DNA of 54,364 nt from Candidatus Magasanikiibacteriota bacterium (lineage in GTDB: Bacteria > Patescibacteriota > Patescibacteriia > Magasanikbacterales > UBA922), in assembly GCA_018652595.1 (NCBI GenBank), contig JABIBU010000001.1, positions 1-54,364 of the forward strand, in the 5' to 3' direction. How positions within the stretch are numbered: the stretch's first letter is position 1; every line of letters starts with the position of its first letter. The notes beneath the pieces are model-generated. The model did not search any database. It was not told the DNA's origin and saw only the letters and a program-made list of their open reading frames with translations. The translations under genes were made by a program, and so were the position numbers. Shown here in pieces: positions 8,326 through 54,364 of this stretch.

Positions 8326-8397
8326 GGCCCGTTCGTCTAGTGGTTAGGATTCCAGGTTTTCATCCTGGCGACAGGGGTTCGATTCCCCTACGGGCTA
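8326..8397 (+). tRNA. tRNA-Glu (TTC)
   Basis: GGCCCGT/ACGGGCT acceptor stem, anticodon arm ccagg-ttTTCat-cctgg, GGTTCGATTCC T-loop. Confidence 0.96.
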
Positions 8398-8430
8398 CAA
8401 AGCAGAATTTGGAGATTCTGTTTTTTGTTT

Positions 8431-29324: not shown

Positions 29325-30065
29325 ATGAAATATGTTTTTGGAAATTGGAAAATGTATCTTGATTTCGATGAATCGAATATTTTAATTAATGGATTGCTAC
29401 AAGAAAAATTCGATAGTGAAAAAGTTGGTTTGGCAGTTTTTCCATCTACCTTGGCTTTGCGTGAAGTCACCATGTCTGCAAAAGATACAGAATTTGCAGT
29501 TGGTGCCCAAAATGTGGCTTGGGTCCCCAAGGGAGCTTATACTGGAGCAGTTTCCGCCCAGATGTTTTCTGATGTTGGCTGTCACTATGCTTTGGTGGGT
29601 CATTCAGAGCGACGCCATGTCTTTGGTGAGACCAACGACGATGTTAGAAAAAAAATAGAAGCTTGTCTTGAGACTAATTTGATCCCAGTAGTTTGTATTG
29701 GTGAGACAGAAGATGATTTGGAAGCTGGAAAGCGTGAATACAGACTAAAGAAACAATTAATGAAGGCATTTGAAAATCTGGAATTAAATGGTGGTAAAGT
29801 AGTAGTTGCTTACGAACCAGTCTGGGCAATTGGCACTGGAAAGGCTTGTGATCCAGCTACTGCACAAGAGGTTCATGCTTTTTTAAAGACAGAGTTAAAA
29901 CAGTACTTTGATGCAGATATTACAGTCCTGTACGGTGGTAGTGTAAAAGCAGAAAATGTGGTATCATATGTAGCACTTGGTGCAATAGACGGTGTCTTAG
30001 TTGGGGGAGCATCAGCAAGGCTAGATAGTTTTACAGAGTTAATTAGGGCTGTTGAAGGTGTTTAA
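29325..30065 (+). CDS. tpiA: Triosephosphate isomerase
   Basis: GNWKM, GAYTG, GHSERR, AYEPVWAIGTG, LYGGSV, LVGGAS. Confidence 0.98.
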   Translation: MKYVFGNWKMYLDFDESNILINGLLQEKFDSEKVGLAVFPSTLALREVTMSAKDTEFAVGAQNVAWVPKGAYTGAVSAQMFSDVGCHYALVGHSERRHVFGETNDDVRKKIEACLETNLIPVVCIGETEDDLEAGKREYRLKKQLMKAFENLELNGGKVVVAYEPVWAIGTGKACDPATAQEVHAFLKTELKQYFDADITVLYGGSVKAENVVSYVALGAIDGVLVGGASARLDSFTELIRAVEGV

Positions 30066-30069
30066 ATTT

Positions 30070-30999
30070 ATGTATAGTATTTTACCATTTATTCTAATTT
30101 TATTTTCACTAGCAGTGATGATTTTTGTGATTGTGAGGAAGTTTCCACAACTGACATTGCTAGATGTGGAAACTATACCTGAGGTTAAGGTAGAAAAAAA
30201 GAAAGACGAGTTTCTCAAGAAAAAAGCAGAAAAGCGTGCTGATAGTGTTGCTGAAAAGCAAAAAGAAATGTTAAAACCATTATTCAAGAAATTAAAAGAA
30301 TTTCAGGCTTGGTTTAGAAAAATGGTTTTGGATGTTTATAAAAAGACGGTAATTAAAGCGGAAGCTTCTAAACGTAAAAAACGCACAATTAGTTCTGGTG
30401 CCAGTAATTTAAAAAAGGAAGAGTCCGAAGCTGAAAAGAAAGTGGATATTAAAAAAATAATAAGTGAGGGTGGTGTTGCTTTGCAAAATGATGATTTAGA
30501 TAGCGCTGAGGCAAAATTTATAAATGCAATAAGAATTGATTCAAAAAACGAAGAAGCTTATTTTGGTCTGGCCAGTGTGTATATAAAAAAAGAAGAGTTG
30601 AGCGATGCAGGCGATACATTGGAGTTTTTATTGAAGATCAATCCTCAAAACGCAAAAGCTTTGCTTACCCTGGCAGAAGTTTATGAAAAAAAGGAAGATT
30701 TGCAAAAAGCAGTAGAGTGCTATGAAAAAGCAGCTATTGCAGATGATGGCAGGGCAGAAACCTTTGCCAAAATAGGGGACTTGCTATTAGATATCAATCA
30801 GTGTGAGGGTGCCCTGGAAGCTGCGGTACAAGCAGGTGAATTGGAACCAGAAAACAAGGTATACCTTGACAAAATAGTGGATATTAGTGTAAAATGTGGT
30901 AACAAAGATTCGGCCGAAGAATACTATCAAAAGCTAAGAATGTTAGACCCAGAGAATAGCAGATTAGATGTTTTGAGGGGCAAGATTGACTCTTTGTAG
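30070..30999 (+). CDS. Membrane-anchored TPR protein
   Basis: Likely start MYSIL at 30070; N-terminal TM, coiled coil and TPR repeats (AYFGLASVY, ALLTLAEVY). Confidence 0.8.
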   Translation: MYSILPFILILFSLAVMIFVIVRKFPQLTLLDVETIPEVKVEKKKDEFLKKKAEKRADSVAEKQKEMLKPLFKKLKEFQAWFRKMVLDVYKKTVIKAEASKRKKRTISSGASNLKKEESEAEKKVDIKKIISEGGVALQNDDLDSAEAKFINAIRIDSKNEEAYFGLASVYIKKEELSDAGDTLEFLLKINPQNAKALLTLAEVYEKKEDLQKAVECYEKAAIADDGRAETFAKIGDLLLDINQCEGALEAAVQAGELEPENKVYLDKIVDISVKCGNKDSAEEYYQKLRMLDPENSRLDVLRGKIDSL

Positions 31000-31014
31000 T
31001 CTTTAGTGTATAAT
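30986..31014 (+). promoter_or_regulatory. Sigma70 promoter upstream of the GIY-YIG/tRNA cluster
   Basis: TTGACT-N17-TATAAT, 15 nt before the first tRNA-like fragment. Confidence 0.8.
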
Positions 31015-31029
31015 GCTGTCGTTATATAT

Positions 31030-31090
31030 GCCAACTTAGTCCGCCCGGCAATCGCCTACGGCTCAAGCCGTTGGCGGACGGGCTCAGCTG
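31030..31090 (+). repeat. Direct repeat copy 1: tRNA-Thr 5' end interrupted by a ~43-nt GC hairpin
   Basis: gccaacttag-[tccgcccggca...tggcggacggg]-ctcagctg; the flanks match the first ~18 nt of the tRNA at 31445. Confidence 0.85.
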
Positions 31091-31110
31091 TTTGTCACTC
31101 GTCATTTTAT

Positions 31111-31347
31111 ATGTTTTATACTTACGTTTTAAAAAGTAATAAAGATGATAAGTTGTATATCGGTTTTACTGATGATTTGAAGCGTAGATTCACTGAACAT
31201 AATGATGGTTTAGTAAAATCCACAAGAGATAGAAGGCCTTTTGAATTAATCTATTATGAGGCATGTTGTAAAAAAGATAAAGCTTTAAAACGGGAAAAAT
31301 ATTTTAAAACTGGTTTTGGAAGACGTTTTTTAAAAGATAGAATATAA
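31111..31347 (+). CDS. Standalone GIY-YIG nuclease (UPF0213-like)
   Basis: MFYTYVLKS...LYIGFT.DL.RR..EHN.G...ST..RRP..LIYYE......A..REK..K.G.GR. Confidence 0.92.
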   Translation: MFYTYVLKSNKDDKLYIGFTDDLKRRFTEHNDGLVKSTRDRRPFELIYYEACCKKDKALKREKYFKTGFGRRFLKDRI

Positions 31348-31348
31348 T

Positions 31349-31415
31349 GCCAACTTAGCCCGCCCGGCAGTCGCCTGAGGCTCCAGCCAATGGCGGACGG
31401 GCTCAGCTGGTAGAG
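31349..31415 (+). repeat. Direct repeat copy 2: tRNA-Thr 5' end interrupted by the same hairpin
   Basis: gccaacttag-[cccgcccggca...tggcggacggg]-ctcagctggtagag. Confidence 0.85.
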
Positions 31416-31444
31416 TATTTTATAATCGAGATATATTTATACAT

Positions 31445-31518
31445 GCCAACTTAGCTCAGCTGGTTAGAGCAACGGTTTTGTAAACCGTAGGTCCGGGGTT
31501 CGACTCCCCGAGTTGGCT
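31445..31518 (+). tRNA. tRNA-Thr (TGT)
   Basis: GCCAACT/AGTTGGC acceptor stem, acggt-ttTGTaa-accgt, GGTTCGACTCC. Confidence 0.96.
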
Positions 31519-31519
31519 C

Positions 31520-31591
31520 AGAAAAAGTAGAAAGGTAAAAGTATAAAGTAGAAAGTCTACAAAAAATACTTTTAACTTTATACTTTTTACT
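31520..31591. repeat. Paired inverted heptamer arrays (AGTAGAA / TACTTT units) between two tRNAs
   Basis: aagtagaaaggtaaaagtataaagtagaaagt ... tacttttaactttatactttttact. Confidence 0.7.
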
Positions 31592-31596
31592 AATAT

Positions 31597-31678
31597 GGGC
31601 AGGTTCTCGAGTGGTCAAAGAGGACAGACTGTAAATCTGTTGGCTCCGCCTTCGAAGGTTCGAATCCTTCTCTGCCCA
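31597..31678 (+). tRNA. tRNA-Tyr (GTA)
   Basis: GGGCAGG/TCTGCCC acceptor stem, acaga-ctGTAaa-tctgt, long variable arm, GGTTCGAATCC. Confidence 0.96.
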
Positions 31679-31763
31679 CACAAAAACGGCTTTGACGCTG
31701 TTTTTTATTTGTGGTAAGATGGATATATCTTTCAACCTATAGTACTTTCATCTGGAGGAGACC

Positions 31764-32021
31764 ATGAGTCGAAAATTTCCCGCTCACTTTCCGAAGGTTG
31801 GTGATGTCGTTACTATGAGGGAGGTGGAGAATGAAGATGTTCTTGTGGAGGTCCAAGTAGCAGGACGTCGTTGGTTTCAAGCTGATCCTATGCTTGTATT
31901 TAGTGACGGCACTGTTGGTATCCTCATCTCTACTGATGATGGTGAGTGGAAGTGGAATTGGATGCGATTTCCTGGTTCTTCTTGTGATGGCGACAAAATC
32001 TTGTGGTTGCTTTCCTATTAG
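31764..32021 (+). CDS. Small orphan protein
   Basis: Own promoter (TTGACG...TGGTAAGAT at about 31692-31720), GGAGGAG SD, 3' hairpin and terminator at 32086-32113. Confidence 0.6.
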   Translation: MSRKFPAHFPKVGDVVTMREVENEDVLVEVQVAGRRWFQADPMLVFSDGTVGILISTDDGEWKWNWMRFPGSSCDGDKILWLLSY

Positions 32022-32203
32022 TACATCGCGATGAGAGGGGGTAACCCGACTACACACAAAGAAAGGAGAAGTAGTCGGGTGTAGTCAAAAACAGCTCAGA
32101 TTGGGCTGTTTTTGTGTTTTTTGTTGTGATGTATTATACTAATAACCCAATTAATTTTTTGGTTCCCCAATCTTTTTGTAGTCAACTGTTCTAACTCTTC
32201 GAA

Positions 32204-32242
32204 AGATCCTTCACCCATCGCTTACGCTCCGGGTTCAGGATT
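32204..32242. repeat. REP-like hairpin (AGATCCTTC...CGCTTACGCTC...CAGGAT)
   Basis: atcct/aggat and accc/gggt stems; loop resembles cgctacgctc at about 26194-26203. Confidence 0.55.
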
Positions 32243-32253
32243 ATGAGAACTAT

Positions 32254-33114
32254 ATGCCAGAGCTCCCCGAAGTAGAAACAATTCGTCGTGATTTGAAAAA
32301 GAAAATCTTGAATAAAAAAATCAAGCAAGTCTTGGTTACCGGAAAAGCTAGAGTAAATTTAGATCACAAAGGATTTGTCAAAGTTTTGAAAAATAGAAAG
32401 TTTGTAAATATAGATAGAGTAGGGAAGTTACTCATTTTTGATATTGATTTGAAAAACAGATTTTTGTTAGTACATTTGAAGATGACAGGCCAACTTATTT
32501 ATACCCGAGGCCAACAAGTTACAGCTGGAGGACATTCAGATGTAAAATATAATTTTAATCTTCCAGATAAGTCAACCAGAGTTACATTTGAATTTGTTGA
32601 TGGGAGAAAACTGTTTTTTAATGATAGTCGTCGATTTGGATATTTGAGAATTGTAAATGCAACTGAGTTGCAAAAAGTGAAAGAAAAATTTGGCATAGAG
32701 CCTTTGGTTAAAAATTTTACATTAGAGAATTTTGAGAAAATCTTACAGGGTAGAAAGACAAATATAAAAGCCATTTTATTAAATCAGCAATTAATTGCTG
32801 GAATTGGTAATATTTATGCTGATGAGGCTTGTTTTGATGCGCGTGTTTTACCTGGTACACAAGTTAGTGAGTTAACAAGTGGGCAAGTCCTGAAATTGCA
32901 CAGGGCAGTAGAAAAAGTGATAAAAAAAGCAATTGAAGAACGAGGGACAACATTTAATAATTATAGAGATAGCGAAGGTAAAAGAGGAAATTTCCTTAAA
33001 TTTTTAAAAGTCTATGGGCGAGTTGGGTTGAAATGCAAACGATGTTCGGGTATAATAGAGAAAACTAAGGTTGCAGGGAGAGGAACACATTTTTGTTCTA
33101 AGTGTCAGAAATAG
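32254..33114 (+). CDS. mutM: Formamidopyrimidine-DNA glycosylase
   Basis: MPELPEVET, HLKMTG, D.RRFG, GIGNIYADE, C-terminal zinc finger RGTHFC..CQ. Confidence 0.97.
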   Translation: MPELPEVETIRRDLKKKILNKKIKQVLVTGKARVNLDHKGFVKVLKNRKFVNIDRVGKLLIFDIDLKNRFLLVHLKMTGQLIYTRGQQVTAGGHSDVKYNFNLPDKSTRVTFEFVDGRKLFFNDSRRFGYLRIVNATELQKVKEKFGIEPLVKNFTLENFEKILQGRKTNIKAILLNQQLIAGIGNIYADEACFDARVLPGTQVSELTSGQVLKLHRAVEKVIKKAIEERGTTFNNYRDSEGKRGNFLKFLKVYGRVGLKCKRCSGIIEKTKVAGRGTHFCSKCQK

Positions 33115-54287: not shown

Positions 54288-54364
54288 GCGCGCCTAGCTC
54301 AGTTGGTTAGAGCACCTCGTTTACACCGAGGGGGTCAGGGGTTCGAATCCCTTGGCGCGCACCA
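54288..54364 (+). tRNA. tRNA-Val (TAC)
   Basis: GCGCGCC/GGCGCGC acceptor stem, ctcg-ttTACac-cgag, GGTTCGAATCC, encoded CCA. Confidence 0.96.

Follow-up and report, generated by a model that had tools for sequence, protein, structure and literature searches.

Organization of the tRNA-Thr(UGU) locus

We analyzed a 54,364-nucleotide (nt) stretch of DNA (hereafter, the window; positions 1 to 54,364 of contig JABIBU010000001.1, assembly GCA_018652595.1) from a Candidatus Magasanikiibacteriota bacterium, and focused on a small GIY-YIG nuclease gene that lies between two hairpin-interrupted tRNA fragments just upstream of an intact tRNA-Thr gene. The genome of this ultra-small bacterium (G000; 964,590 bp in 27 contigs) has a single tRNA-Thr(UGU) gene, which has probably been invaded twice in its 5' part. 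All features of the locus are on the + strand. A promoter-like site (30986 to 31014), in which TTGACT and TATAAT are 17 nt apart and 11 of 12 positions match the consensus, is followed by a partial tRNA copy, stub 1. Stub 1 consists of tRNA-Thr nt 1-10 (31030 to 31039), a GC-rich hairpin of 43 nt (hp1, 31040 to 31082), and tRNA-Thr nt 11-18 (31083 to 31090), where the tRNA homology ends. After a 20-nt spacer (31091 to 31110) comes the nuclease gene, an open reading frame (ORF) encoding 78 amino acids (aa; 31111 to 31347). Stub 2 begins after a single base 3' of the stop codon and comprises tRNA-Thr nt 1-10 (31349 to 31358), a variant of the first hairpin, also 43 nt in length (hp2, 31359 to 31401), and tRNA-Thr nt 11-24 with the D-loop form GGTAGAG (31402 to 31415). 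A 29-nt spacer (31416 to 31444) separates stub 2 from the intact tRNA-Thr(tgt), i.e., UGU, gene (31445 to 31519; 71.8 bits), the only gene with this anticodon in the genome. The stubs and hairpins were delimited from the sequence and its repeats, together with a fold test for hp1 and the comparisons with relatives described below.

A repeat search detected two direct repeats of 63 nt (31028 to 31090 and 31347 to 31409) that are 89% identical and 319 nt apart, and no further copy of this unit was found in the whole 964,590-bp genome. Both hairpins are inserted after tRNA nt 10 (or 11; one C is ambiguous). They are identical at 36 of 43 positions, and the seven differences are confined to the inner part and the first base. 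As hp1 lies 28 nt 5' of the ORF start and hp2 lies 11 nt 3' of the stop, hairpins are present on both sides of the gene. When folded as DNA, hp1 performed far better than shuffled sequences (z -3.98; 0 of 200), and it also folded well as RNA (z -3.3). The insert is ~415 nt in total, and its duplicated part is the 5' end of the tRNA. Logan contigs from two runs (5316 nt and 12525 nt) cover 30500 to 31554 and 30500 to 31494, respectively, with 0 differences. The two runs may be the source samples, yet they were assembled separately from the genome; because their contigs bridge the locus without differences, the arrangement did not arise in the assembly of the genome itself.

The nuclease was identified by a Pfam scan of an 81-codon stretch (31102 to 31347) slightly longer than the ORF, which matched PF01541 with an E value of 1.3e-17 (64.3 bits against a cut-off of 22.6) over profile positions 1-72 of 78. 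The domain fills nearly all of the 78 aa, and there is no second domain. In an alignment of eight genome copies inspected by eye, Y3/Y5, Y16-I-G, R25/R26, H30, and E62 were conserved; they correspond to the conserved Tyr, Arg, His, and metal-binding Glu of GIY-YIG enzymes, with roles assigned in part from SsnA mutants. They align with UPF0213 structures, and the nearest solved structures by sequence are the single-domain UPF0213 entries 1zg2 (4.3e-6) and 1ywl (2.2e-5), with Slx1 following weakly. The only match in NCBIfam was a sub-threshold one to a group I intron endonuclease.

The only strong promoter-like site stands 5' of stub 1. The only terminator-like site detected (31682 to 31705) follows the tRNA-Tyr gene, with which it occupies 31597 to 31705 and where the transcript presumably ends; none lies upstream of tRNA-Tyr. 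Judging from its match to the consensus, the promoter-like site may serve the tRNA operon, and a comparable site precedes the bare tRNA-Thr gene in a genome of the same genus (G001). No integrase was present among the ORFs of 29500 to 33000, and the two tyrosine recombinases of the genome sit on other contigs (C27 and C18). In an Rfam scan of 30500 to 32200 (E up to 10), just the two tRNAs scored above threshold; the hairpins were unmatched, and no intron family was found. A group I intron within the tRNA was considered and rejected: in addition to the lack of an Rfam intron match, the stubs have no 3' half, and the insertions are in the D arm.

These results agree base for base with the gene order given in the initial annotation of this DNA (promoter, interrupted fragment, GIY-YIG gene, interrupted fragment, and intact tRNA-Thr[TGT]). 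They also confirm that both inserts occupy the same tRNA position, that the hairpins share their outer part, and that no integrase is adjacent, and they support the proposed capture of the tRNA promoter.

Comparison of the locus with related genomes

In both G001 and G002, which belong to the same genus, the TPR gene and an uninterrupted tRNA-Thr(tgt) are separated by a short spacer, and neither a GIY gene nor a hairpin is present. Identity to the analyzed genome is 79% for Fpg in G002, and 69% for Fpg and 70.5% for the TPR protein in G001. These results indicate that the locus is an insertion relative to its same-genus relatives.

A strict hairpin pattern retrieved one other genome alone among the species genomes, G205 (locus L031), which is less closely related than the empty-site genomes are (Fpg, 63%; TPR protein, 42%). 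Locus L031 consists of the TPR gene, tRNA nt 1-10, a hairpin, nt 11-17, a 17-nt spacer, the GIY gene, one base, an intact tRNA-Thr, and tRNA-Tyr, and thus carries the upstream hairpin only. Its hairpin is identical to hp1 at 42 of 43 positions, and its nuclease is identical to the analyzed protein at 62 of 78 (79.5%). Because third codon positions differ in 26 of 78 codons and the spacer (31090 to 31110) aligns in just 11 of 21 columns, the primary sequence of the hairpin, loops included, is much more constrained than the adjoining gene. The presence of the cassette in G000 and G205 and its absence from the closer G001 and G002 imply either horizontal gain or repeated precise loss.

The tRNA-Glu(UUC) locus of G002 is filled. 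Its resident tRNA-Glu(UUC) gene is split in the anticodon loop, each half retaining a copy of a 31-nt double hairpin, and the halves enclose a GIY gene together with an entire tRNA-Glu(UUC) whose acceptor stem is different. The split resident shares its promoter, leader, and acceptor stem with the intact tRNA-Glu gene at 8326 to 8398 of the window. Since the stop codon of the GIY gene sits inside the D loop of the new tRNA-Glu, the GIY gene and the tRNA form one physical unit. G000 is therefore filled at Thr and empty at Glu, and G002 is the reverse. These reciprocal filled and empty sites between genus-mates support mobility, and they are the clearest sign both of recent movement and of cassettes bringing their own tRNA.

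GIY-YIG genes and partial tRNA copies in the genome and the order

Nine GIY-YIG matches were found in G000, eight in small genes and one in an open frame of 403 aa. Of the small genes, six adjoin a same-strand tRNA (Thr, Gln, Leu-GAG, Leu-CAA, Lys, and Arg), and all six have hairpin-bearing partial tRNA copies; the other two lie between protein-coding genes with hairpins on both sides. When partial copies were searched by blastn-short and counted if they were at least 14 nt or in two pieces, 12 of the 41 tRNA genes had a same-strand partial copy within 1.2 kb, and three more were recognized by eye. Nine of these loci have no nuclease gene, and nuclease-less units were observed at tRNA-Phe, His, Val, Met, Gln, Lys, and Ser. 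The stubs are either 5' pieces upstream or 3' pieces downstream of the tRNA, with the hairpin lying in the T loop or in the D or anticodon arm. Several loci (Leu-GAG, Leu-CAA, Glu-CUC, and Ile-UAU) have a stub whose acceptor stem is unlike that of the adjacent working tRNA, so the working copy there is not simply the old gene.

Of 201 genomes that were sampled from the order, 135 have homologues of the nuclease (E up to 1e-8), and multiple copies per genome are frequent. We surveyed the neighborhoods of 95 GIY hits in 89 loci, made up of the 29 best loci and 60 stretches around the next listed matches. A same-strand tRNA starts -36 to +118 nt from the ORF stop in 50 cases and is found only upstream, within 150 nt, in 11, so that 61 of the 95 adjoin a same-strand tRNA. 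No tRNA was nearby in 28 cases, six were at a contig edge, and none had an antisense tRNA nearby. The downstream tRNAs represent 22 anticodons. Their start is within -36 to +10 nt of the stop in 45 of 50, and the ORF ends inside the tRNA in 19. An exact-match script detected a split 5' stub upstream in 28 of these 50, a count that includes a few doubtful cases and misses, through mismatches, at least three real ones seen by eye. The insertion points cluster at tRNA nt 7-21 and nt 34-36, and the tRNA homology past the hairpin is usually just 5-11 nt.

These results place the locus in a large and coherent class of cassettes that combine a nuclease with hairpins and are associated with tRNA genes. 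The insertion proposed in the initial annotation is thus borne out by the two empty sites in the genus, and its expectation that GIY genes lie beside interrupted tRNA fragments elsewhere holds at many tRNA genes of this genome and of the order. The proposal also outlasted the two ways in which it might have failed, since the locus is not an assembly artefact (0 differences from the Logan contigs) and the pattern is not unique to one GIY gene.

Furthermore, the type of hairpin follows the nuclease. We defined the hairpin class of the analyzed locus by its outer arms, CCCGCCnGC...GCnGGCGGG. A class hairpin was present within 200 nt of all 12 homologues that are at least 62% identical to the analyzed protein (one of these loci, L038, was added by eye) and was near none of the other 85 proteins on the tree. 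In the maximum-likelihood tree of 98 proteins, the 12 homologues and the analyzed nuclease form one clade (support, 99/87) with one state change. The tree shows a stable pairing of nuclease and hairpin and not independent co-evolution, which we do not claim because kin share traits. The tRNA partners within the clade are Thr, Lys-UUU, Lys-CUU, Phe, Gln, and Asn. As the partner varies, the lineage has passed from one tRNA species to another, with both its hairpin class and its D-arm preference retained.

Distribution of the hairpin class

A metagenome scan with the outer arms of the hairpin returned at least 121 stretches, of which 80 (L123-L202) were examined. A near-invariant 42-nt class hairpin was common in sediment and groundwater contigs of ~47% G+C. 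The flanks of the metagenome copies favor G at -2 (50 of 63), C at -1 (56 of 63), and C at +1 (42 of 63). The copies are often nested in larger GC-rich palindromic arrays, and there is often no GIY gene or tRNA within 500 nt on either side. We considered whether one hairpin inserts into the loop of another and dropped this idea, as the flanks of 66 distinct metagenome copies reached at least 8 pairs in 3 cases, compared with 37 of 1320 shuffles. Several copies viewed by eye do sit inside larger palindromic arrays.

Within G000, a composite repeat of ~150 nt with a class-related hairpin occurs at several intergenic sites (C25:161001-162682, C23:2661-2692, and C17:2790-2825). The ORF that follows the hairpin at C18:20131 was rejected as a GIY gene and encodes a small membrane-like protein. 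Two ORFs resemble those for repetitive extragenic palindromic (REP)-associated tyrosine transposases (RAYT), with weak Y1_Tnp matches (C17:161-691 and C15:1073-1771). The ORF on C17 is bracketed on both sides by its own hairpin type, which is unlike the tRNA-stub hairpins, and a RAYT was rejected as the enzyme of the hairpin class because its flanking repeats differ in type.

Other features of the region and the genome

The TPR-repeat gene upstream of the locus (30052 to 30999, + strand; identified as an ORF and by Pfam) has its 3' end within the promoter-like site. Between tRNA-Thr and tRNA-Tyr lies an AT-rich 23-nt inverted repeat with 91% complementarity (31522 to 31588), and a similar AT-rich spacer is present in G002 and L031. 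An 85-aa ORF without a Pfam match (31764 to 32021) is located between tRNA-Tyr and fpg. In G002, fpg begins ~60 nt past the tRNA-Tyr terminator, so this ~480-nt stretch is another insertion/deletion difference. In G001, the region past the bare tRNA-Thr (L029, 3520 to 4800) contains a 204-aa ORF with a LAGLIDADG-like look (by eye only), a tRNA-Tyr-like gene with ~230 nt inserted in the anticodon loop, and then a 5'-truncated second tRNA-Tyr copy whose anticodon loop contains a GC-rich double hairpin; ARAGORN called no tRNA-Tyr in this region.

Several contigs of G000 end in tRNA genes or hairpin-bearing pseudo-copies (C15, 23609 to 23760; C10, 1 to 165; the window, 54288 to 54364; and the end of C24), and tRNA/hairpin repeats seem to break the assembly. 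At the start of C10, the apparent C terminus of another GIY gene is followed by a tRNA-Ile pseudo-copy. On the minus strand of C18 (38300 to 39300), tRNA-His is preceded by two pseudo-copies, one of which has hairpins in both the D loop and the T loop, and by a 140-aa ORF that is not GIY-YIG and may be other cargo in a like unit.

Interpretation of the two stubs

The two stubs probably represent two successive displacements and not the two ends of one element. Stub 2, 1 base past the GIY stop, lies where the intact tRNA lies in L031, and the D-loop form GGTAGAG is common to stub 2, L031, G001, and G002. The present working tRNA-Thr has GGTTAGAG instead of GGTAGAG and differs at two further loop positions. 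In addition, the last 8 nt before it resemble the 8 nt before stub 1 (repeat 31022 to 31039 versus 31437 to 31454, 94%).

Under this reading, stub 1 would be the 5' end of the resident tRNA-Thr, displaced by a first-generation unit that consisted of the GC-rich hairpin, a few tRNA bases, the GIY gene, and a copy of tRNA-Thr. This unit would have entered the resident tRNA-Thr(UGU) in the D arm. Stub 1 would then have remained next to the native promoter, carrying the hairpin 8 nt from the breakpoint, with the cassette tRNA taking over from the resident. In a second generation, a related nuclease-less unit, made up of hp2, the 29-nt spacer, and the 5' part of a tRNA, would have split this cassette tRNA at the same position, so that it became stub 2 and the incoming unit provided today's working tRNA. 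Units of this kind without a nuclease occur elsewhere, at tRNA-Phe in G000 and at tRNA-Gln in the metagenome contig L139. Because the acceptor stems at sister loci are foreign, the working tRNA was probably supplied by the incoming unit. The initial annotation had proposed a minimal selfish element that invades the tRNA 5' end and leaves an intact tRNA downstream. The insertion and its recurrence favor such an element, but the stubs are probably not its two ends, and the intact tRNA was probably brought in rather than left behind.

Relation to known systems

The closest published system, as judged from the main text of its description, is the Ssn nuclease with the NTS/SRM hairpin family (Chenal et al. 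2025, PMC11893778). The enzyme SsnA, a single GIY-YIG domain of 94 aa, binds its hairpin repeat exclusively in the form of single-stranded DNA (ssDNA) and cleaves a few nt upstream of the repeat; 42% of Ssn homologues have such repeats on both sides, each prefers its own repeat, and a role in transformation is proposed (PMC11893778). The present system resembles the one described there in its bare GIY-YIG domain of ~80-110 aa, in a gene bracketed by GC-rich hairpins that are also dispersed genome-wide, and in the possession by each nuclease lineage of its own hairpin variant. The tyrosines and the glutamate of the analyzed protein align with Y6, Y17, and E64 of SsnA. However, the hairpins here lie within partial tRNA copies and the gene directly adjoins a tRNA, whereas the word "tRNA" occurs 0 times in the main text of PMC11893778, which proposes no tRNA replacement. 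Because of this absence, and because the published SRM motif was unmatched (see below), we regard the nuclease as presumably Ssn-like in its working without filing it as a member of Ssn.

T4 SegB is encoded in a tRNA gene cluster, recognizes a T-loop motif, and spreads with the flanking tRNA genes (PMC2330249). SegB shares with the present system a GIY-YIG gene among tRNA genes, tRNA sequence as target or homology, absence from close relatives, and inheritance together with neighboring tRNA genes. By contrast, the SegB protein reads a 27-bp site in double-stranded DNA and leaves no hairpin-tagged tRNA stubs, whereas the analyzed protein is a catalytic domain only and is tied to a hairpin class. 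With 78 aa and no second domain, it lacks a Seg-type DNA-binding domain for reading a long double-stranded site. The presence or absence of the gene at a conserved locus among close relatives is of the Seg type (absent from G001 and G002; present in G000 and G205).

The REP/REPIN-RAYT and IS200/IS605 systems likewise have a small dedicated enzyme that recognizes hairpin repeats as ssDNA, autonomous and enzyme-less copies, and dispersed arrays. However, the HUH tyrosine transposase of REP/RAYT cuts and rejoins DNA, which a GIY-YIG hydrolase cannot do, and the analyzed locus has no HUH Y1 gene flanked by its REP hairpins. Nor does it have the adjacent integrase and duplicated tRNA 3' end of an integrase island, as the duplication is of the 5' end. 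In Allomyces mitochondrial DNA, which Paquin, Laforest and Lang reportedly described in 1994 and 2000, a mobile GIY-YIG ORF is said to carry a duplicated gene end. There, the endonuclease ORF reportedly enters an essential gene and brings a replacement part while the old piece is left as a pseudogene, and GC-rich double hairpins are said to be scattered over the AT-rich genome. That case reportedly concerns the organellar protein gene atp6 and not bacterial tRNA genes, and we know of no fixed relation between hairpin and breakpoint in it. Full-text literature searches retrieved no account of GIY-YIG/hairpin cassettes within the tRNA genes of bacteria, and the element seems to be widespread and undescribed in print.

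Proposed mechanism and alternatives

We consider it reasonably probable, though well short of certain, that the locus records two rounds of invasion by a small selfish cassette, which overwrites tRNA genes by hairpin-guided nicking and repair. By analogy with SsnA, the nuclease would bind its cognate hairpin in ssDNA and nick a few bases away. Repair through the conserved tRNA sequence would then copy or recombine the cassette into tRNA genes. Since the tRNA-Thr(UGU) gene is essential and present in one copy, an event would survive only if it preserved a complete tRNA. The nuclease gene itself is probably read from the captured tRNA promoter.

Several points weigh against this proposal. Its weakest step is the putative foreign origin of the present tRNA, which depends on two to three base differences. 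A GIY-YIG hydrolase cannot join DNA alone, so host repair must complete any move, and insertion needs host functions. As DNA, hp2 folded no better than shuffled sequences (z -0.89; 34 of 200). The published SRM search motif had 0 matches in the 964,590 bp of the genome on both strands (shuffles, 0-3). The initial annotation had also foreseen excised forms, but no joint that skips the cassette, by excision or deletion, was found in the contigs of four runs, in which rare forms are invisible. The empty allele, in which the upstream flank of the locus itself is joined to an uninterrupted tRNA start, had 0 matches in JGI metagenome contigs, and precise losses between the direct repeats could also explain the pattern of presence among relatives. 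Many of the 28 surveyed homologues without a nearby tRNA are intergenic and lie between terminal inverted repeats, and G000 has 12 additional class-related hairpin copies, all intergenic and away from tRNAs. In the metagenomes, a GIY gene lies within 150 nt downstream of the hairpin in 1 of the 80 loci, so cis linkage of hairpin and nuclease is not general; a tRNA is near the hairpin in just a handful. Because most copies stand without a GIY gene or tRNA, the hairpin appears to behave as a dispersed repeat, and its enzyme, if it is the GIY nuclease, would mostly act in trans. This dispersal refines the initial view of a nuclease with its own hairpins.

The abundance of such solitary copies would be expected if the hairpins were autonomous REP-like or miniature inverted-repeat transposable element-like repeats that spread by other means and break tRNA genes with slippage duplications, the GIY genes riding along or acting as host processors of hairpins. 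The nuclease-less units at seven tRNA types and the two RAYT-like genes of G000 point in the same direction. However, the RAYT-like genes are flanked by another hairpin type, the nuclease clade and the hairpin class are paired, and random hitch-hiking does not predict strict co-orientation with a GIY stop that abuts or overlaps the tRNA start in 45 of 50 cases. We thus regard this explanation as unlikely, although it deserves serious attention. We find it distinctly unlikely that the gene is a free-standing homing endonuclease of the SegB type, in which the protein reads double-stranded tRNA sequence, makes a double-strand break, and is copied by repair with the hairpins as passengers. The precedent of SegB in its tRNA cluster, with T-loop motif recognition and spread alongside tRNA genes (PMC2330249), and the filled and empty alleles among relatives fit homing. 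Nevertheless, 78 aa of bare catalytic domain cannot accommodate a DNA-binding domain, the hairpin class and the nuclease clade coincide perfectly in our sample (13 versus 0 of 85), and the hairpin is far better conserved than the ORF. Moreover, the cassette tRNA keeps the sequence of the insertion point and was apparently re-invaded (stub 2), which argues against classical homing with site immunity.

That all parts lie on one strand between one promoter-like and one terminator-like site, and that hp1 folds well as RNA, would also suit a purpose-built leader of the tRNA operon serving processing, attenuation, or RNA stability, with the ORF as an ordinary small gene. Such a leader is very improbable: it is missing at tRNA-Thr in both same-genus genomes and matches no Rfam family, the same architecture occurs at 22 anticodons with unrelated leaders, and stubs are also found 3' of tRNAs. 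It is scarcely credible that the repeats are attL/attR scars of an integrase island or an assembly artefact. Although tRNA genes are common integration sites and some contigs of this 27-contig assembly end in tRNA pseudo-copies, the insert is only ~415 nt with duplicated 5' ends, no integrase is present in 29500 to 33000, both tyrosine recombinases are on other contigs, and two contig assemblies bridge the locus with 0 differences.

Implications

Beyond this locus, hairpin-guided GIY-YIG nucleases may drive a cycle of tRNA gene replacement in ultra-small bacteria, a generalization that we offer tentatively, as possible rather than probable. A cassette tRNA fused to the nuclease gene would take over the promoter and function of a resident broken in one of its loops and could itself be re-invaded. 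The tRNA set would thereby be continually overwritten by horizontal transfer, with the stubs as its fossil record. If this is true, the essential single-copy tRNA genes of tiny symbiotic bacteria would be a main battleground for selfish DNA, and the Ssn-type nucleases described in 2025 would have a second, unreported lifestyle, in which tRNA genes are overwritten and their function is kept. The stubs mislead tRNA annotation, and phylogenies built on tRNA genes could be distorted by their horizontal replacement. Small nucleases strictly paired with 40-nt hairpins would also provide many candidate sequence-specific ssDNA nucleases with predictable substrates.

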